The translations under genes were made by a program, and so were the position numbers. Positions 4,826 through 16,794 of a stretch of 32,000 bases of DNA are shown in pieces (within the stretch, counting starts at the first letter, position 1; every line of letters starts with the position of its first letter). Source of the stretch: Shewanellaceae bacterium UBA2521 (GTDB lineage: Bacteria > Pseudomonadota > Gammaproteobacteria > Enterobacterales > Shewanellaceae); contig DDNL01000090.1 of assembly GCA_002341165.1 (NCBI GenBank), positions 1 to 32,000 on the forward strand, written 5' to 3'. The notes under the pieces were generated by a model. It did not search any database. It was given only the letters and a program-made list of their open reading frames with translations, and was not told the DNA's origin.

Positions 4826-4898
4826 AACACGAACCAGTAAACACTCCCTTACAAGCCAGCATGCTTTGTGTTGGCTGTAAGATATGTGAAGAAGAGTT

Positions 4899-5268
4899 GG
4901 AGTGGGCGCATAAGCCGGGTTCTGTCTCTTTATCCAAGATAAAGAGGGTAGTCATTCATCTAGACCACAAATCACTCTGTGGTTCAAGCAATCTACCCGC
5001 TCTCAATGCGGACAACATTAAAGAGAGCCTATTTGATCTTGCTCCGAGTGGAGTTTACCTTGCCACAAACAGTTACCTGCTGTGCGGTGTGCTCTTACCA
5101 CACCCTTTCACCCTTACCTGTATCAATAAAATTGATCATCGGCGGTCTACTCTCTGCTGCACTGGTCGTAAGCTTGCGCTTCCCAGGCGTTACCTGGCAC
5201 TCTGTCCTGTGGAGCCCGGACTTTCCTCCCCGTTGAATACAACGCAGCGACTACCTTGCCCACTCCAG
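4899..5268 (-). ncRNA. rnpB: RNase P RNA, bacterial type A
   Basis: The reverse complement contains GGGGAGGAAAGTCCGGGCTCCACAGGACAGAGTGCCAGGTAACGCCTGGG, ACGACCAGTGCAGCAGAGAGTAGACCGCC and the terminal AGACAGAACCCGGCTTAT. The 5' GGAGTGGGC pairs with 3' GCCCACTCC (P1). Confidence 0.96.
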
Positions 5269-5320: not shown

Positions 5321-6154
5321 TTAAAGCTCTAAGCCAGCTTCATAAAGCTGCTTTTTATTCAAACCATAAATTTGCGCTGTAATCGCTGCCGATTTCTTTA
5401 AAGGTAAATCTTGTTTCAATAAAGCAAGCGTATTTAAAGCCTGCTGCGAAATAGCACGAGGATCCGGTTGATAACCTCGACAAAGAATAACAAACTCTCC
5501 TTTTTGTTGATTCTCATCTTCTTCCAACACAGCTTTGACCTGTACAAGCGTACCTTGAATAAAAGTTTCAAAGGTCTTTGTCAATTCTCTAGCAAGTACA
5601 ACCTCTCTTTGCTCACCCCATGCTTGAATCATGGCATTGACAGTATCGAGAACACGTCTTGGCGACTCATAAAAAATTAAAGACCGAGTTTCTTCCTTAA
5701 GTAAAGCTAGCTTATCTAAACGCGCTTTAGCTTTTGCCGGTAAAAAGCCTTCAAAACAAAAACGATCCGAAGGTAAACCCGCTGCAGAAAGTGCCGTAAT
5801 CGCAGCACATGCACCTGGAAGAGGTATCACCTTGTATCCTTGCTGACGCAAATGGCTCACAAGATGGTATCCTGGATCAGAAATTAAAGGCGTACCTGCA
5901 TCAGATATAAGTGCTACTGTTTTTTGCTGCGCTAACTGGTCAGCAATCCAGTTTACTTTTTGCTTCTCATTGTGATCATGTAGAGCTATCAATTTAGATT
6001 GAATACCTAAATGCTGAAGAAGCTTGCCACTGTGTCGTGTATCTTCACAAGCTATCAAATCTACTTCGGATAAAACATGTACAGCACGACGACTGATATC
6101 ATCTAAGTGACCGATGGGTGTTGGAACAATGTATAAAGCAACAGTTAAATCCAT
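5321..6154 (-). CDS. rsmI: 16S rRNA (cytidine-2'-O)-methyltransferase RsmI
   Basis: 277 aa ORF with LYIVPTPIGHLDDISRRAVHVLSEVDLIACEDTRHSGKLL, ALISDAGTPLISDPGYHLV and FYESPRRV. Confidence 0.97.
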   Translation of the reverse strand: MDLTVALYIVPTPIGHLDDISRRAVHVLSEVDLIACEDTRHSGKLLQHLGIQSKLIALHDHNEKQKVNWIADQLAQQKTVALISDAGTPLISDPGYHLVSHLRQQGYKVIPLPGACAAITALSAAGLPSDRFCFEGFLPAKAKARLDKLALLKEETRSLIFYESPRRVLDTVNAMIQAWGEQREVVLARELTKTFETFIQGTLVQVKAVLEEDENQQKGEFVILCRGYQPDPRAISQQALNTLALLKQDLPLKKSAAITAQIYGLNKKQLYEAGLEL

Positions 6155-6233
6155 AAATCAATCTCAATTAGCTTTCATCAATAAAGAATGAGCGTTAAAC
6201 TAACAAAAGGCTATTTTACCAGAGTTGCGAAGC

Positions 6234-8021
6234 ATGAAAAAATTTAATTTACCATATTCTATCAAATTAAGATTGATAGTCTCTCTTTCATGGCTATCAA
6301 TGACAAGCTGTACATCCATTCAAGAACAAGAGCAACATATGCAAATGTCAGGATCTCATGAAGTCAACACAGCACAACTGCAAGAGAAATTACCTCAAAG
6401 TGATAAAAAATATCCAGACATGCTCAAAAGCGCAGAAGAGTATTTACTCTCTGGACAGCTCAGTGCCGCTGAAAGCCTCCTTAAAGAAATCAAAATTAAT
6501 GAGATAAAATCCCACGAGCTCAAAGCTTATTATCTCTACCTCTCGGCACAGTCGGCAACGCAAAGACATCAATGGACAAAAGCTCTACAGCTGATTGAGC
6601 AAGCACAAAAGCAAAAACCTCTGATTATCGAGCAAGAAATCTCTTTGCTGCAACTTGCCGTTGAGCTGTACAATACAACCAATCAACCCATTAAACAAGC
6701 GGCTGCATTGCACGCTATCAATGAAATAGAACCATCATCTAATCTTGATGCACGTATTTGGTATACACTACAACCTGTCTCTGAAGATTTACTCAAGCAG
6801 CAACTCAAAAAAACACGAGATAAAAACTTTAATGGCTGGCTAGAGCTTAGTTACATTGGTAAACGTTATGCCGATTTACCTCAAGATTTACAAAAGAAAG
6901 TCAATCAGTGGCAGCAAGATTACCCTGAACATCCACATTATGAAAACTTACCTGATGACATCAATCGCGCGCTTCACACTCAAGTGTATAACCCTAAAAA
7001 AGTAGGCGTCTTGTTACCTGCAAAAGCTACCAGTGCATCGCGTGCAATACGCAGTGGCATCATCGCGAGCACTTTGAAAAACAAAGCACGCTCCTTGGAA
7101 CTCCATTTTTATGATACGTCTGAAGGGGGACTAGAAGCTTATAACCGTGCTGAACAAGATGAATGCGAGTTTATTATAGGACCTTTACTTAAAGAGCATG
7201 TTGAAGAAGTTGCAAGCAGCAGATCTAACATTATTCCGCAGTTAATGCTCAATATGCCAGATGGTGTTGTTAATGATCCCGATAGATATTATTTCTCTTT
7301 ATCTCCGACTGAAGAAGCGGCTCAAACTGCTCAATACTTCAAAGAACAAGGTATTAAAAACCCTCTTATTATTGCCAACTCAAGAAGTAGCAGCAAAAAA
7401 ATGGTTGAATCTTTTACCCAAGCTTGGGAAAAAATATATGACGAGCAACCTAAAGTATACTACTACAGCAATAACAAAGAGATCAAAACCAAAGTACAAG
7501 ATGCATTAAGTGTTAAAGAGTCGAAAGCACGTATCCGTGCCATCAAAAACACTTTTGGCTTTCAACTGAAAGCAGACTTTCGCTCACGTCGAGATATAGA
7601 TGCTATTTATCTTCTAACACAAGGCGATGAAGTCAAATTGTTAAAACCATTTGTTGATGTCAACACAAGTGTTTTCGCTGAGCCTATTTCTACTTATGCT
7701 AGTTATCGTAGTCATGTGAAAAGCAAAAATGGACAATACCCAAGAGAGCTCAATAAAATGCGTATCAATACTATGCCTTGGCTCCTTACAGAATCTACAG
7801 AGCTTAGCCTGATCGAAGAATGGTCTAATCTAGAAAAAAGACTTTACGCAATGGGCTACGACAGTATTTCTCTGATCGATAAATTAGCCCAAATGAAAGC
7901 ATCTCAAAGCTACTATTTTGAAGGTCGAACAGGTACAATGAACATTGACCACCAAGGTGTGATACATCGTAAACAGCAGTGGGCTAAATTTTATAGCAAC
8001 GGAAAGTTAAGAAAACTATGA
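6234..8021 (+). CDS. lpoA: LpoA-like penicillin-binding protein activator (TPR plus periplasmic-binding-like domain)
   Basis: About 595 aa lipoprotein-like ORF (LSWLSMTSC lipobox) with VGVLLPAKATSASRAIRSGI and FIIGPLLKEHVEEV; conserved position between rsmI and yraN. ATG at 6234 preferred over the track TTG at 6225. Confidence 0.88.
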   Translation: MKKFNLPYSIKLRLIVSLSWLSMTSCTSIQEQEQHMQMSGSHEVNTAQLQEKLPQSDKKYPDMLKSAEEYLLSGQLSAAESLLKEIKINEIKSHELKAYYLYLSAQSATQRHQWTKALQLIEQAQKQKPLIIEQEISLLQLAVELYNTTNQPIKQAAALHAINEIEPSSNLDARIWYTLQPVSEDLLKQQLKKTRDKNFNGWLELSYIGKRYADLPQDLQKKVNQWQQDYPEHPHYENLPDDINRALHTQVYNPKKVGVLLPAKATSASRAIRSGIIASTLKNKARSLELHFYDTSEGGLEAYNRAEQDECEFIIGPLLKEHVEEVASSRSNIIPQLMLNMPDGVVNDPDRYYFSLSPTEEAAQTAQYFKEQGIKNPLIIANSRSSSKKMVESFTQAWEKIYDEQPKVYYYSNNKEIKTKVQDALSVKESKARIRAIKNTFGFQLKADFRSRRDIDAIYLLTQGDEVKLLKPFVDVNTSVFAEPISTYASYRSHVKSKNGQYPRELNKMRINTMPWLLTESTELSLIEEWSNLEKRLYAMGYDSISLIDKLAQMKASQSYYFEGRTGTMNIDHQGVIHRKQQWAKFYSNGKLRKL

Positions 8022-11130: not shown

Positions 11131-11170
11131 AAAAAAAGCCTTTGCTTTACATGCATGCAAGGCAAAGGCT
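11131..11170 (-). terminator. Rho-independent terminator of the tandem receptor-channel genes
   Basis: On the minus strand AGCCTTTGC...GCAAAGGCT (9-bp arms) is followed by TTTTTT; about 33 nt past the 11203 stop. Confidence 0.85.
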
Positions 11171-11202: not shown

Positions 11203-12411
11203 CTAATTCATATATGAATCGCCATAATACTTAGATTTTTGATCTTGCCACTCAAGCGTATGTCGCAGCTCAAGAATAGCAATATTTAATTCTTCTAATC
11301 GATCAAACTTTTTGGATACAACAAAGCCAAAATTCTGCCTAAAGAACTGAAAAGGTAAAATAACAAAGTTTTCATAATTACCTTTTCTTTGTTCTTTTTT
11401 CAAACTAAATCGGTTCACCGCATCATCATTGATCATCGCATCAATCACACCAATATCCATAGCATAAAACTTCTCAGATACAGAGTCATAGCCAATATAA
11501 GAAATCCCTTTTTCTCGAGCATAAGCTTCATGGGTTGTACCACTTTGAACACCAACTCTATAATTGATTAAATCACCCACCCCTGAAATCGAACTACTTT
11601 GAACACCAAGCGTAAAGTAACTGGCTAATAAAGCCGTGATACCTGCTAAAAATAAAGTACTAAATACTGCGAGGAACACAGCTAAGACACGACCTGTTAA
11701 GGTTTTAAACTCATAATAATTAAATGGCCCTTTTGTAATAAATAGCAAGCCTAAAATAAAAGCCTCAATAGCTCGCTTGAAATAACCCAGTTTATCCATA
11801 GCATAAATTTTGTCATTTATATTATGCTCTAAAAAATAAAAAACTATAGATACTGTAATTGCTAAAAAGAACAATAAAGAAATAATTCCTGTAAATCGAC
11901 TCGATTGAAATAAAGATTTAAATTGTTCCCAAGCATTTGATCTTCTTGTGACAATAGATACGTAGGTTTCAAAGTAAGAGTGAGTAAAGCTTGCTCTTTT
12001 GAAACGCTCAGAGGTAATAGTGGTACAAGATAAGCCAATATCAAGCTCATTCTCCATGACATTTTCTAGATGCTCTTTCCAAGTCACGCGATGAAGCTCA
12101 TACTCAAGCCCTAACTGAGCGGCGACTTTGTCCCAAAGATAAACAGCTAAACCCGTTGTTGTGCCATCTTCGTTAAAAAAAACGAAAGGTTCACACTCAG
12201 CAGCTCCAACTTGAATCGCTCCTGATTTCTCTTTTTTTAAATCTTTTTGTCTTGCTTCCTCTTGTTGTTCTAATTTACGAAGCGCTTCATAATCAACCTG
12301 ATTAAACTCTTCCTCTTGCGCAAAGGATAAAGAAATACTGGCGGTAACAAAGCCTACCCAAAAGCAACATTTAAGGATATGTTTAGTAAAAGATATATAT
12401 TTGGCTTTCAT
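11203..12411 (-). CDS. Prokaryotic ionotropic glutamate receptor-like protein: periplasmic solute-binding domain (family 3) split by TM1-pore-TM2, copy 1
   Basis: 402 aa. Signal peptide; S1 (IQVGAAECEPFVFFNEDGTTTGLAVYLWDKVA...DIGLSCTTITSERFKRASFTHSYFETYVSIV); TM1 (IISLLFFLAITVSIVFYFLEH); pore and TM2 (IEAFILGLLFITKGPFNYYEFKTLTGRVLAVFLAVFSTLFLAGITALLAS); S2 (VGDLINYRVGVQSGTTHEAYAREKG...GVIDAMINDDAVNRF). Confidence 0.85.
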   Translation of the reverse strand: MKAKYISFTKHILKCCFWVGFVTASISLSFAQEEEFNQVDYEALRKLEQQEEARQKDLKKEKSGAIQVGAAECEPFVFFNEDGTTTGLAVYLWDKVAAQLGLEYELHRVTWKEHLENVMENELDIGLSCTTITSERFKRASFTHSYFETYVSIVTRRSNAWEQFKSLFQSSRFTGIISLLFFLAITVSIVFYFLEHNINDKIYAMDKLGYFKRAIEAFILGLLFITKGPFNYYEFKTLTGRVLAVFLAVFSTLFLAGITALLASYFTLGVQSSSISGVGDLINYRVGVQSGTTHEAYAREKGISYIGYDSVSEKFYAMDIGVIDAMINDDAVNRFSLKKEQRKGNYENFVILPFQFFRQNFGFVVSKKFDRLEELNIAILELRHTLEWQDQKSKYYGDSYMN

Positions 12412-12479
12412 AACAAAAGTACCTATAACATTAATTTTTATCTACACAGTAGGCAAAAAACTATTTCAAACAAAAGCAA

Positions 12480-13703
12480 CTAATTTAAATATGCTTCTCC
12501 ATAGTATTTTCTTTTCTGCTCTTCCCACTCAGATGTTTCTCGAATACGCAGTAACTCGACATTAAGTTCATCACGCTTTTTAAAAAACTTAGAGATAACA
12601 ATACCTATGTTTTGTCTTAAAAACTGATGAGGTAAAATCTCTAGGTTCTCAAACTTTCTACTTAACTGCTCTCTAGGTAAGAGATATCGATTGATTGCAT
12701 CATCAGTAATGATTGCATCCACAACTCCTACCTCAACAGCATGATATTGCTCGAGTGTTGATTCATAAGGAATATAAGAAATACCTTTGCTTTTTGCATA
12801 AGCTTCATTAGTCGTACCAGCGTGGACAGCTATTCTGAAATTGGCCAATTCTGAAACGTTACGAATACGATGACTCTGGATACCTGTAATCAAAATACTC
12901 GCCATCAATGCCGTGATACTCGCTAAAAATAATGTACTAAATACCCCTAGCAAAACCGCCAGAACTCGACCTGTTAAAGTTTTAAATTCATAATAGTTAA
13001 AAGGCCCTTTGGTGATAAAGAGTAACCCCAAAATAAAAGCTTCGATAATGCGCTTGAACCAGCCTAGCTTATCCATTGCATAGATTTTATCGTTAATATT
13101 GTGTTCTAAAAAATAGAACACAATAGAAACGGCTATGGACAAACAAAAGAGTAAAAGCACAATACTTGAGAACTGATTAGATTTAAATAAAGCTAATATT
13201 TGCTCCCATGTATCCGATTTCTCTGTGACAATAGAGACATAGGTTTCAAAAAAAGGATAGGAAAAATAAACACTTTGAGCCCGAGAAGCGCTAATTGATG
13301 TACAAGATAAACCAATATCAATTCTACCTTCACCGGCATACTCAAGATGTTCGGGGAATGAAGTGCGCTCAATGGTATATTTCAGGTTAAGATTCTTAGC
13401 AATTTGCTTCCATAAATAAACAGTCAAGCCCGTCACGCTACCATCTTCTTCGTAAAATACAAACGGAGGACACTCTGCAGCACCAACTCTAACTTCATCT
13501 GTATTTCTTTTTTGCTTATGTGACTGTTCTTGCTTGTTAAAAAGCTCCTGATCTGCAACATTGAAATCTGATTCATTCGCATAAGAGACATAAGATAAAA
13601 TAAGGCCAACTGATGCCATCATCAGTACCAAAACTGGTTTTAAGCGCATATAAACTAACACATAACATATATCTTTGTAGCGTCTATCCATCATTTTTTG
13701 CAT
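12480..13703 (-). CDS. Prokaryotic ionotropic glutamate receptor-like protein, copy 2 (tandem paralogue)
   Basis: 407 aa with the same S1-TM1-P-TM2-S2 layout; S1 VRVGAAECPPFVFYEEDGSVTGLTVYLWKQIA, pore IEAFILGLLFITKGPFNYYEFKTLTGRVLAVLLGVFSTLFLASITALMAS, S2 VSELANFRIAVHAGTTNEAYAKSKG...GVVDAIITDDAINRYLL. 68 nt separates it from copy 1 on the same strand. Confidence 0.85.
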   Translation of the reverse strand: MQKMMDRRYKDICYVLVYMRLKPVLVLMMASVGLILSYVSYANESDFNVADQELFNKQEQSHKQKRNTDEVRVGAAECPPFVFYEEDGSVTGLTVYLWKQIAKNLNLKYTIERTSFPEHLEYAGEGRIDIGLSCTSISASRAQSVYFSYPFFETYVSIVTEKSDTWEQILALFKSNQFSSIVLLLFCLSIAVSIVFYFLEHNINDKIYAMDKLGWFKRIIEAFILGLLFITKGPFNYYEFKTLTGRVLAVLLGVFSTLFLASITALMASILITGIQSHRIRNVSELANFRIAVHAGTTNEAYAKSKGISYIPYESTLEQYHAVEVGVVDAIITDDAINRYLLPREQLSRKFENLEILPHQFLRQNIGIVISKFFKKRDELNVELLRIRETSEWEEQKRKYYGEAYLN

Positions 13704-13875: not shown

Positions 13876-14667
13876 ATGGACTTTAAATTAATCGCACATA
13901 AACTAATGCCATGGGTATTTACAGCTATATTTTTTAGTGGTATTTCTACATTCTTCTTCACTTTCAAACTTTTTCATAATGTCGATAAGCTAGAAATTGC
14001 GTCACAAGAAAAGTTTCAGTCTTACCTAGTAGCCGATGAGTTACGCCAAAGCTCAGATGATCTCACTAGATTAGTAAGAACTTTTGTTATAACAGGTAAT
14101 GATGACTATGAAAAAATGTTCAAAGATGTCATCTCGATTAGAGATGGCATGACTCCTCGACCTCAAAACTACCATCAAATCTATTGGGATTTCGTTATGA
14201 AACATGGTGATAAACCCAAGCCTGATGGGGAACCTATTGCCATACGAGAACGTATGCGTCAGCTCAGCTTTGCAGAGCAAGAACTTAAGTATCTCACTAA
14301 AGCTAAAGACAATTCAGATAAGCTCATCGGAATTGAAATGGATGCGATCAACGCAACGCGTGGCTTATATCGAGACGAAAGCGATAAATATACCCAAAAA
14401 GGACCTAAGAAAATCCAGTGGGCTATTCAAATCTTGCATAATAGACAATATCATAAAGAAAAAGCGAAAATCATGCGCCCGATTGATAACTTTCTATATG
14501 CTGTAGAAAAGCGCACTTCAGATGCCTTCAGCGATAAAATTAAATCAATTAATAATGCCATCATGTTCATTCTTTTTATCAATGCAGGATTATTGATCTT
14601 CTCTGTATTGAGCTTTGTCTCTTTAATACTTGATAAAAAGAACATTAAAAAAGAGCAAGAAAATTAA
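13876..14667 (+). CDS. Stand-alone membrane-anchored sensor domain of the type fused to MCPs, hybrid histidine kinases or GGDEF proteins; no output domain
   Basis: 263 aa, two TMs flanking ADELRQSSDDLTRLVRTFVITGNDDYEKMFKDVISIRDGMTPRPQNYHQIYWDF...; ends after TM2 with only SLILDKKNIKKEQEN. Confidence 0.75.
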   Translation: MDFKLIAHKLMPWVFTAIFFSGISTFFFTFKLFHNVDKLEIASQEKFQSYLVADELRQSSDDLTRLVRTFVITGNDDYEKMFKDVISIRDGMTPRPQNYHQIYWDFVMKHGDKPKPDGEPIAIRERMRQLSFAEQELKYLTKAKDNSDKLIGIEMDAINATRGLYRDESDKYTQKGPKKIQWAIQILHNRQYHKEKAKIMRPIDNFLYAVEKRTSDAFSDKIKSINNAIMFILFINAGLLIFSVLSFVSLILDKKNIKKEQEN

Positions 14668-14736: not shown

Positions 14737-14858
14737 GATACTTTTTTTCAAACATACTGATTAAAGCTCAACCACTTCACAAGCCAGCACTCAACCCAAG
14801 TTCAATTATGATATACTGCTCAATTGACTCTGATTTTGGTTACAACATATCGTATTTT

Positions 14859-15014
14859 ATGAAAAAAAAAGATTTGCCAACTAAAATTTGTCCTGTTTGC
14901 CAACGCCCTTTCACTTGGCGCAAAAAGTGGCAAAAAGTCTGGTTACAAGTGCGTTATTGCTCTGAGCGCTGCAGACGCAAACGCTCTACGCATAAGGCAG
15001 ACCCTCATACATAA
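14859..15014 (+). CDS. DUF2256 domain-containing small cysteine-rich protein
   Basis: 51 aa: [51 protein letters not shown], matching the recalled DUF2256 pattern; ATG at 14859 fits better than 14808. Confidence 0.85.
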
Positions 15015-15162: not shown

Positions 15163-16794
15163 CTACACTTGAAACTTACCTGTCATGTTTCTTAAATCTG
15201 TTGCTAAGCTGAGAAGATCACTACTTGATTTATTCAGTCCTTCTGCCTGATCAGATGTTGCTTGAGCAGAACTGTGCACATTTTTGAGTGACTTAATTGT
15301 TTCCTCAATAATATCTTCCTGTCTACTACTTGCTGTAACGATTAACTTATTGCCTTGATTAATCTTTTTCATAGCCAACTCAATGGTATTGAGTACACCA
15401 CTTGCAGCTTGTGCTTTTCCGCCCGTTTCATTGGCATATCTTGAGCTTTCTATAATCGACTCAACCGCTTTACGTGTACCCTGCTGAACTTGCTGTACTG
15501 AATTCCTAATTTCTGTTGTGGAGTTGAGGGTTCGGTTTGCGAGAGTTCTCACCTCATCGGCAACAACAGCAAAGCCTCTTCCTTTCTCTCCTGCACGCGC
15601 CGCTTCAATCGCAGCATTAAGCGCCAACAAGTTTGTTTGATCTGCAATATCATTGATGACACTGATTACAGATTCAATACTCTCTACTTCATCACTTAAA
15701 GTCACAATATCATTGTTAATTTCTGTGACCTTTTGCACAAGAACCTGTGTTGACTCAACAGACTCATTCACCACTTCGTGCCCTATTTCCGCCTCTGACA
15801 ATGCATCACTTGCAATATTGTTTGCATTTTCTGCATGCGCTGAAACTTCTTTTGCACTATCGCAAAGAGAGTTAATAGAAACATCAATGGTATCGAGTTT
15901 GGCCAGCTGATCTTGAATGCCATCAGCCGTATCATTACCAATAGCGACAATATTATCAGATGTTTTTTTAAGATTTTGTGAAGCAACATTGATCTGTGTC
16001 ATGATCAGATGAATCTGCTTGAGCATATCATTTAAATCAACCGACATCACTGAGATTTCATAAGGACAAAGTGTATCGGCTTTAACTGTTAAATTACTGT
16101 TTTGCGATACATCACTTAAAACACCTGATAGGTTTTTGATAGATTTTTGAATCGCTCTATAGTTAAAGACGTTCACAGCAATCATAAAAATAATAACAAG
16201 AATATTCAGTATAACGGTCAAATTTTGTATCGAGCTATACTGATCTGCTATCGTTTTACGCTCAAGAGAAGCTTGGTTCAGTTGAATCTCAACCAGTTCA
16301 GTAATCTTATTACTGATCGGATCAATCGTATCATAAAGCGGACCATCAAAGTCGTTCAGCTGATAAGCAACGCGTCCTTTCATCGTACCCAGCTTACGAA
16401 TTACATCATCAACAGATTTATCTGCTGGAATAAAAAGCGCTTCAGCCTCTTTAGCCAATTCAAGCTCCTCTTCAGGCAGCTCAGACTCTTTATAAATTTT
16501 CCAGTTTTTCGCAATATGACCTTTAGCAAACTCTAAATTCTCTTTTGCTTCTTCTGCCGTTACAATACCTGTGTTCGCTTTGTTCACAGCATCAATAATT
16601 AATACAGCATAATCGTCTGCAATGGTCTTAAGCGTACGTAAAGGCACAACGCTGGAGTCGTAAATAGATACCGCCGAGCTCTCGATACCTTGAAGGGACT
16701 TTAAAGATAAAAAAGCAAACCCTATCAAGAAAAGCAGAGGCACAACAGATGTGATAATTAATCGATATTTAATACTGAGTTGGCTCAAACTCAT
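15163..16794 (-). CDS. Methyl-accepting chemotaxis protein (4HB-type periplasmic sensor, HAMP-like linker, MCP signalling domain)
   Basis: 543 aa, two TMs and the hallmark hairpin [56 protein letters not shown]. Confidence 0.93.

Follow-up and report, generated by a model that had tools for sequence, protein, structure and literature searches.

Two tandem genes for prokaryotic ionotropic glutamate receptor-like proteins with a pore motif that departs from the K+-channel signature, in a marine gammaproteobacterial contig

Two adjacent open reading frames (ORFs), B and A, were studied in a 32,000-nucleotide stretch of DNA from Shewanellaceae bacterium UBA2521 (assembly GCA_002341165.1, contig DDNL01000090.1, positions 1 to 32,000; hereafter the window), an uncultured marine organism seen in Tara Oceans and SRA assemblies, with a gammaproteobacterial gene order. 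Each protein consists of a signal peptide and a periplasmic family-3 clamshell, whose halves S1 and S2 are split by a membrane helix (M1), a re-entrant pore helix and loop (P) and a second membrane helix (M3). We think that A and B are probably paralogous subunits of an amino-acid-gated channel of the prokaryotic ionotropic glutamate receptor (iGluR) type, within the clade without a K+ filter that was described as Group 2 by Ger et al. in 2010 (PMC2950845). The two genes are:

12480..13703, minus strand: ORF B, iGluR-like subunit, 407 aa if the longest ORF is taken (404 aa in public gene calls, which begin at Met4)
11203..12411, minus strand: ORF A, iGluR-like subunit, 402 aa

Ideas on the descent of the iGluR pore of animals and plants, which passes cations without selectivity, from an ancestor resembling a K+ channel still rest on GluR0, the one bacterial protein that has been characterised, and bacterial relatives already devoid of the K+ filter are the obvious missing data point. 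What is new here is the tandem paralogue pair, the K/R/Q/S variation at a lysine position of the pore, and a conserved stand-alone sensor-domain neighbour. The novelty is modest, as these are divergent, tandemly duplicated members of a family catalogued in 2010.

Architecture of the two proteins

ORF A and ORF B share 57% identity across 384 residues. In ORF B the signal peptide ends at about SYVSYA and is followed by S1, M1, P, M3 and S2. The corresponding segments of ORF A, all on the minus strand, are as follows.

Residues 1-31: signal peptide, with the junction SFA/QEE
Residues 32-62, 12226-12318: charged helical linker QEEEFNQVDYEALRKLEQQEEARQKDLKKEKSG, a low-confidence prediction
Residues 63-165, 11917..12225: S1 half of the binding domain, with T131 and R136 (TTITSER) and the family-conserved C73 and C129
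Residues 171-195, 11827..11901: M1 helix, ending in the invariant motif LEHxxN
Residues 210-227, with the loop at 228-237: pore helix of the AlphaFold model
Residues 238-269, 11605..11700: M3 helix, with GITALLASYF at the position of the eukaryotic SYTANLAAF gate
Residues 271-397, 11221..11601: S2 half, with GTT at 291-293 and D329/D330 (INDD)

The charged segment between the signal peptide and S1 has an equivalent in ORF B and is confined to the subclade formed by A, B and the related protein P0002.

Profile searches recovered the binding domain as a unit interrupted from within. The Pfam family SBP_bac_3 matched residues 68-397 of A (E 1.8e-19) and 72-402 of B (E 1.3e-19), in both cases spanning the insert, and matches to Lig_chan (residues 181-312 of A) and Lig_chan-Glu_bd fell inside this span, slightly below their gathering scores. 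Among 82 relatives, Lig_chan was matched by 80 at E <= 1e-3 (best 5.6e-12) and Lig_chan-Glu_bd by 79. Ion_trans_2 was found in none of the 78 family members and in all four TVGYG-bearing outgroup proteins. An earlier reading of this DNA from its letters alone (the sequence-only reading) had proposed a GluR0-like S1-TM1-P-loop-TM2-S2 layout (TM, transmembrane segment) and had pointed to SBP_bac_3 and Ion_trans_2 as a check; the outcome, with SBP_bac_3 spanning the insert and Ion_trans_2 matching K+-type outgroups only, bears out the proposal.

The AlphaFold 2 model of ORF A, built on an alignment of 82 sequences, had a mean predicted local distance difference test score (pLDDT) of 85.5 and a predicted template modelling score of 0.71. 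In this model the lobes of the binding domain flank the TM-P-TM insert, residues 228-237 form an extended loop, and the helices M1 and M3 agree with the hydropathy peaks at 170-198 and 237-271. Prediction of the structure had been set beforehand as a refuting test of the layout, and the middle segment of the model does form a TM-P-TM unit. ORF A ends within S2 at residue 402; no hydrophobic segment follows S2, and hence there is no M4.

Structural comparison led to the same architecture. The top matches of the model in a Foldseek search of the PDB were chains of GluA1/GluA2 and GluN1/GluN2 comprising the ligand-binding domain and the transmembrane domain (TMD), with E values from 4e-19 to 1e-17 over 377-417 columns; soluble arginine- and glutamine-binding proteins matched the binding domain alone. 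At the profile level, hhalign aligned the family with TTVGYGD-bearing homologues from Bacteroidota over 343 columns (probability 100, E 8e-52). A profile of the TMD alone matched only eukaryotic iGluRs in the PDB, placing KTLTGR...ITAxLAS opposite RSLSGR...YTANLAA. The linker between M1 and P, on the cytoplasmic side, is rich in Lys and Arg; since S1 and S2 must lie on the same side of the membrane, the binding domain would be periplasmic and the P-loop would enter from the cytoplasm, as in iGluRs. With Pfam, the modelled helices, hydropathy and Foldseek in agreement, the S1-M1-P-M3-S2 layout of A and B is far beyond chance.

The gate region of M3 is recognisable in part. GITALLASY of A and SITALMASI of B have T, A, L and A in common with SYTANLAAF, and the segment aligns with YTANLAA of GluA, GluD and GluN2. 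Across the family and its K+-type relatives T259 and A260 are invariant, and A263 and S264 nearly so.

Most database entries would make A and B membrane-anchored substrate-binding proteins of an amino-acid ATP-binding cassette (ABC) importer. SBP_bac_3 is indeed their strongest Pfam match, the NCBIfam models matched are those of ABC binding proteins, and the names given by sources include 'ABC transporter substrate-binding protein'. All the NCBIfam matches, however, are far under their cut-offs (for example 62.9 bits against 312), the transmembrane segments lie between the halves of the binding domain and not at an end, and the fold matches full iGluR chains with binding and transmembrane domains. 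Genes for an amino-acid permease or ATPase were found neither in the window nor at related loci, and the sole ABC genes of the window, probably ccmA/B/C, are among cytochrome-c maturation (Ccm) genes. We find this explanation hardly credible and rejected it, as the NCBIfam scores are far below the cut-offs and partner genes are missing. This accords with the test that the sequence-only reading had named for a non-channel family, given the internal two-TM insert, the lack of adjoining BPD_transp/ABC genes and the Lig_chan matches in 80 of the 82 relatives.

The ligand is likely to be an alpha-amino acid or a close analogue, judging from the residues of the pocket. In the alignment, R136, T131 (or Ser) and D329 stand where AncQR and other family-3 amino-acid-binding proteins bind the alpha-carboxylate and alpha-ammonium groups, and R136 and D329 are near-invariant (>=90%) among the 82 relatives. 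The equivalents in ORF B are TSISASR in S1 and ITDD in S2. The Arg of ITSER/ISASR and the acidic pair INDD/ITDD, which had been singled out as features of an amino-acid ligand, thus do align with ligand residues. Both the Arg and the Asp were reported to be fully conserved in prokaryotic iGluR Groups 1 and 2 (Ger et al. 2010, PMC2950845).

Two cysteines of ORF A, C73 (~12193-12195) and C129 (~12025-12027), are near-invariant in the family, which we also refer to by its pore motif TKGPF, and absent from K+-type relatives. They align with positions in the ligand pocket of amino-acid-binding proteins, namely the aromatic residue that follows the first strand and, in the G-x-T-x-x-x-x-R motif, the Gly. 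From this placement, C73 and C129 may form a periplasmic disulfide that lines the ligand pocket.

The pore loop and its expected behaviour

The pore of A and B reads LFITKGPFNYYEFKTLTGR, and FITKGPFNYYEFKTLTGRV is present in both proteins, as is every motif that the sequence-only reading had quoted. The TVGYG signature is absent from both copies.

Residues 210-237 of ORF A, 11701..11784, minus strand: pore helix and loop, FKRAIEAFILGLLFITKGPFNYYEFKT, with K227 at the apex
Residues 215-242 of ORF B, 12978..13061, minus strand: pore helix and loop, 93% identical to the ORF A counterpart

In the family alignment LGLLFITKGPFNY[YF]EF[KRQH]TL is the most conserved stretch of the protein. A scan for the motif over one genome per species, the search across genomes that the sequence-only reading had suggested, gave the same pore in 68 species, with LFITKGPFNY[YF]EF essentially invariant among them. 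Both MAFFT and hhalign aligned this stretch without gaps to the TTVGYGD homologues of Bacteroidota, in the following register.

T226: first Thr
K227: second Thr
G228: Val
P229: Gly
F230: Tyr
N231: Gly
Y232: Asp

ITKGPFN therefore stands opposite TTVGYGD, and the K+ signature is lost in both copies, as had been proposed. The further proposal that a lysine replaces the filter valine does not hold as worded, though a register shift of one residue is conceivable. Because K227 is opposite the second Thr in the gap-free alignments, the Lys replaces the equivalent of KcsA T75 and not the Val. KcsA T75 has been aligned with Q590 of GluR6, the Q/R editing site, and D80 with E594 (Panchenko et al. 2001, PMC2217257). 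On these alignments K227 would coincide with KcsA T75 and the AMPA/kainate Q/R site, or differ from them by a single residue, and a permanently 'edited' pore apex is thus a better analogy than a Val-to-Lys change of the filter. The modelled pore helix ends at residue 227, which fits the apex position. The acidic residue at '+4' (KcsA D80, GluK2 E594) is a Tyr, Y232.

The Lys position varies among distant relatives (P0092-P0109), which read T-[K/R/Q/S]-G-[P/T/A] with the flanking Thr and Gly fixed. The core group has K; R is found in P0092 and P0093, S in P0094 and P0109, and Q in P0099, P0105 and P0107. By analogy, this natural series recalls the variation at the Q/R/N site. A near-invariant motif with a genomically encoded basic residue at or beside the Q/R-site position, together with its natural K/R/Q/S variants, offers a testable handle.

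We propose that four subunits would form the pore. Binding of an amino acid would close the clamshell and pull on the M3 bundle crossing (xxTAxLASxF, the counterpart of SYTANLAAF), and ions would then pass a pore whose apex is T226-K227-G228-P229 in place of T-T-V-G-Y-G. Loss of the GYG abolishes K+ selectivity in P-loop channels, and as the GYG is absent here the pore should not be K+ selective. The ring of Lys at or beside the apex, together with the Tyr at '+4', suggests low divalent permeability, low conductance and possibly anion permeation. In edited receptors, selectivity and conductance are set by the Arg at the Q/R site, which also confers a finite Cl- permeability (PMC3753602). The expected pore would hence lack K+ selectivity, conduct poorly, pass few divalent ions and perhaps, like GluK2(R), have an appreciable permeability to anions. 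If it were anion-permeable or otherwise unusual, the selectivity range of the iGluR fold would be widened; if it simply passed cations without selectivity, it would still bridge GluR0 and the eukaryotic receptors.

Several points weigh against this interpretation. The Lig_chan scores of A and B (26.8 and 24.9 bits) are below the Pfam gathering score of 30.8. The placement of the pore loop relative to eukaryotic receptors may be off by one or two residues: a HMMER alignment with GluN2C sets I225 at the N site, and ungapped extension from the K/R-S/T-L-S/T-G-R anchor sets G228 opposite Q586 of GluA2, the Q/R site. In a filter resembling that of a K+ channel, the Lys side chain could also point off the pore axis or pack behind the loop. 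Conduction, ligand and selectivity are inferred for every member of the clade, and the prediction of selectivity, made by analogy, is the weakest link. To these may be added that ORF A is frameshifted in one public assembly, which is taken up below.

Could A and B nevertheless be glutamate-gated K+ channels like GluR0, the former annotation of the Aliivibrio fischeri orthologue? The filter Thr (T226) and one Gly are kept, the overall homology to K+-type bacterial iGluRs is strong (the hhalign E of 8e-52), and according to Ger et al. (PMC2950845) the database name of the A. fischeri protein YP_204476.1 is 'glutamate-gated potassium channel'. We judge it very improbable, as there is no GYG and Ion_trans_2 separates the 78 family members from the four TVGYG outgroups; the same authors, moreover, assigned the A. 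fischeri protein to Group 2, which has no K+ filter (PMC2950845).

Gene organisation, duplication and neighbourhood

The sequence-only reading had described the two genes as lying 68 nt apart on one strand ahead of a common terminator and had considered co-transcription likely; we arrived at the same arrangement.

12412..12479, minus strand: spacer between B and A, 68 nt, without a terminator-like structure
11131..11170, minus strand: intrinsic terminator 3' of ORF A, a 9+5 bp hairpin followed by a U-run

RNA folding of the 68-nt spacer was no better than that of shuffled sequence (z = +0.63). The terminator hairpin starts 33 nt past the stop codon of ORF A and folds at -18 to -19 kcal/mol (z = -4.5), which none of 200 shuffles equalled; a consensus terminator scanner missed it because the loop is long. 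Since the spacer is unstructured and the terminator follows A, a single B-then-A transcript is likely, and ORF B and ORF A are probably co-transcribed, as far as the sequence can tell. A promoter scan gave 17 sites, which is not above the chance expectation of 11.6 +/- 3.9.

The 68 loci of the species scan are all single copy. They come from Photobacterium, Aliivibrio, Moritella, Ferrimonas, a few Vibrio, one Desulfosediminicola, and single alphaproteobacterial and Oceanospirillales assemblies, and the best match to the window proteins among the species representatives of the genome collection is no more than 47% identical. Metagenomes added at least 17 loci, all single copy among the matches listed. 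A further tandem pair was found neither in the 68 species loci nor among these metagenome matches; the metagenome scan used a noisy pattern and gave no close relatives of the A/B subclade among the matches listed, so the absence of pairs there is weak evidence. The tandem pair is thus one among at least 89 loci, and as the sole pair it allows a direct look at heteromeric assembly in a bacterium. A phmmer search with the TMD alone against 1.84 billion representative proteins returned only 25 clusters; every full-length one has 365-395 aa and this layout, and the pore is hence no mobile module. Clustering of the ORFs from 69 loci revealed synteny within genera only, and no functional clue. In Photobacterium alginatilyticum (L065 6001-6994) the family gene was recovered as two overlapping tblastn pieces, 6001-6630 and 6614-6994, which suggests a frameshift; the gene may be a pseudogene or contain a sequencing error.

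One other lineage, known from P0002 and P0003, joins A and B in a long-branch subclade, and its single gene is of the A type. The duplication is therefore older than the split, with B probably lost in that lineage. ORF B is 89% identical to its orthologue in L071, with a ratio of nonsynonymous to synonymous substitution rates (dN/dS) of 0.18, and ORF A compared with P0002 has a dN/dS of ~0.09. These values indicate that both copies are under purifying selection and that the duplication is old.

One NCBI contig (32,753 bp) has ORF A called in two pieces, of 79 aa (...CEPFVFF) and 330 aa (MNLSFFFNEDG...). The split matches an extra, ninth T in the T8 run at ~12178-12185 (minus strand), in codons 77-79. 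It may be an assembly error or a real frameshift variant, and the more economical explanation is that one assembly has the homopolymer length wrong. It bears on the notion that there is a single functional copy and that ORF A is a redundant duplicate heading for loss, which could also appeal to the single copy of the related organism in L069 and L072. We regard this as decidedly unlikely: the intact 402-aa product is on record from four other contigs and several sources, the single copy retained in L069 is of the A type and not B, and the A lineage combines its low dN/dS with an intact pore.

Between A and B, the pore helix and loop are 93% identical, against only ~52% identity in S1 and S2. 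This pattern is compatible with shared constraints on the pore and diverged ligand sites, and is no proof of heteromers. A bolder proposal would have A and B assemble as an obligate heterotetramer whose subunits bind different amino acids, with a Lys ring that confers anion or unprecedented selectivity and with the neighbouring sensor protein as an auxiliary subunit. We hold this combination to be a long shot; if true, the heterotetramer would be the bacterial counterpart of the two-agonist principle of NMDA receptors.

The neighbouring sensor protein, N263, is encoded divergently from ORF B.

13876..14667, plus strand: N263, 263 aa, two TM segments with a helical periplasmic sensor domain and no output domain

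N263 had no Pfam match. Elsewhere domains of this type form the N-terminus of chemoreceptors, HAMP/histidine kinases, GGDEF proteins and adenylate cyclases, and some sources call them CHASE3. The AlphaFold 2 model of N263 had a pLDDT of 90.8; a Foldseek search of the PDB found nothing significant (best E 0.08), and the weak matches of best probability were four-helix-bundle chemoreceptor domains (Vc1313, PcaY, NarQ). N263, at 64% identity, again adjoins the channel gene in divergent orientation in L069, L072 and, in part, L071, where the remaining neighbourhood differs, and it is absent beside the 68 other family loci. A link between N263 and the channel is speculative.

N263 also enters into the idea that A and B are non-conducting ligand sensors, in which TM-P-TM would do no more than anchor the protein or relay a signal, a role suggested for some delta-type iGluRs, with N263 as a possible partner. 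In favour are the loss of the canonical filter, the expectation that four Lys in a ring at the pore apex would oppose the flow of cations, and the conserved stand-alone sensor protein that adjoins the gene in the A/B subclade. Against this, no part of the protein is as conserved in the 68 species as the pore helix and loop, which exceed the binding domain in this respect, and that is hard to explain if the membrane module were a mere anchor. The gate motif of M3 is retained in part, and the neighbour is absent from 68 other genomes with the same pore. We therefore consider a non-conducting role unlikely and continue to favour an amino-acid-gated channel.

Further neighbours encode an alpha/beta hydrolase, a BON-domain protein, a chemoreceptor, an MMPL transporter and housekeeping proteins. 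Two genes just past N263 are not conserved beside the related single-copy gene in L069, and the only Rfam match at the gathering threshold in the whole window, RNase P RNA, lies elsewhere than near the channel genes.

14808-15014, plus strand: DUF2256 zinc-ribbon-like ORF, 68 aa, just past N263
15163-16794, minus strand: methyl-accepting chemotaxis protein of the 4HB_MCP type, just past N263
4895-5266, minus strand: bacterial RNase P RNA class A, 330 bits, full length, between a ccmH-like gene and rsmI

Comparison with known systems

The closest described proteins are found in the work of Ger, Rendon, Tilson & Jakobsson 2010 (PMC2950845), who screened for the S1-TM-TM-S2 arrangement and obtained 22 prokaryotic iGluRs, 12 of them with a K+ filter (Group 1). 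The P regions of Group 2 were unlike those of any channel whose selectivity is known, and the authors proposed the designation 'putative glutamate-sensitive ion channel' (PMC2950845). Group 2 includes #42, Vibrio (Aliivibrio) fischeri ES114 YP_204476.1 (NC_006840, 366 aa), and #50, Photobacterium profundum SS9 YP_132561.1 (PMC2950845). We found the former on chromosome I of ES114 (L068 5899-6999; E 7e-72, 37% identity); the ORF on NC_006840 has exactly 366 aa and its pore reads FITKGPFNYFEFKTLSARV. A P. profundum strain other than that of the SS9 record has a 371-aa ORF with the pore FITKGPFNYFEFKTLSGRV, and entry #50 probably carries the same pore. The window proteins satisfy the description of Group 2, with iGluR topology, the Arg and the Asp, and a P region without the K+ signature; as the ES114 ORF of 366 aa has the same motif, they belong to the clade catalogued in 2010. 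As a class, the feature picked out by the sequence-only reading had thus already been listed (PMC2950845).

Like #42 and #50, the window proteins have a signal peptide, S1, M1, P, M2 and S2, no M4, the conserved Arg and Asp, and the same pore motif. In contrast to them, the window proteins, which share only 36-43% identity with these two, belong to a long-branch subclade with one other lineage, carry the extra charged segment after the signal peptide, and are encoded by tandemly duplicated genes beside a divergent sensor-domain gene that is conserved. Neither the motif nor the lysine nor the correspondence to the Q/R site is discussed in the paper (PMC2950845), and the pore motif string had no match in three supplementary files. 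In the literature after 2010 we found no functional work on Group 2 members, most subscription journals being outside the search. In the table of Ger et al. (PMC2950845) the ES114 orthologue (L068), whose pore is FITKGPFNYFEF, is named 'glutamate-gated potassium channel'; as this pore is without the K+ signature, the name is probably wrong. Most other family members are named ABC or 'transporter substrate-binding' proteins.

Among K+-type bacterial iGluRs (Group 1), the protein for comparison is GluR0 of Synechocystis PCC 6803, reportedly the work of Chen et al. 1999. GluR0 is K+ selective, rescues K+-uptake-deficient E. coli and has been connected with K+ uptake and volume regulation (PMC13099474). 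The window proteins resemble GluR0 and Group 1 in their full-length homology (judged against the Bacteroidota TTVGYGD proteins), in a two-TM and P-loop pore inside an amino-acid-binding domain, and in an inverted topology with neither M4 nor an amino-terminal domain. They differ from GluR0 in having ITKGPFNY for TTVGYGD and no Ion_trans_2 match, and a rescue of K+ uptake in E. coli would not be expected here.

With soluble binding proteins such as GlnH, ArtJ, HisJ and AncQR 4ZV1 they share the binding lobes, which align with E values down to 7e-16 and include the ligand Arg and Asp. Proteins of the GlnH type are soluble and uninterrupted and lie beside ABC permease/ATPase genes, whereas a membrane module of 110 residues splits the domain of the window proteins.

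AMPA, kainate, NMDA and delta receptors are the best structural matches of the whole unit of binding and transmembrane domains, and the 'S/T-L-S/T-G-R' before M3 and the 'TAxLA' within it align between the two sets. Unlike the eukaryotic receptors, the window proteins have no amino-terminal domain, M4 or C-terminal tail, and the identity is 14-19%; their small size, without M4 or an amino-terminal domain, makes them suited to structural work. With the Q/R-edited receptors GluA2(R) and GluK2(R) they share a basic residue at or beside the pore loop's apex. In contrast to those receptors, this residue is a genomically encoded Lys, replaced by Arg, Gln or Ser in distant relatives, and the acidic residue at +4 is missing.

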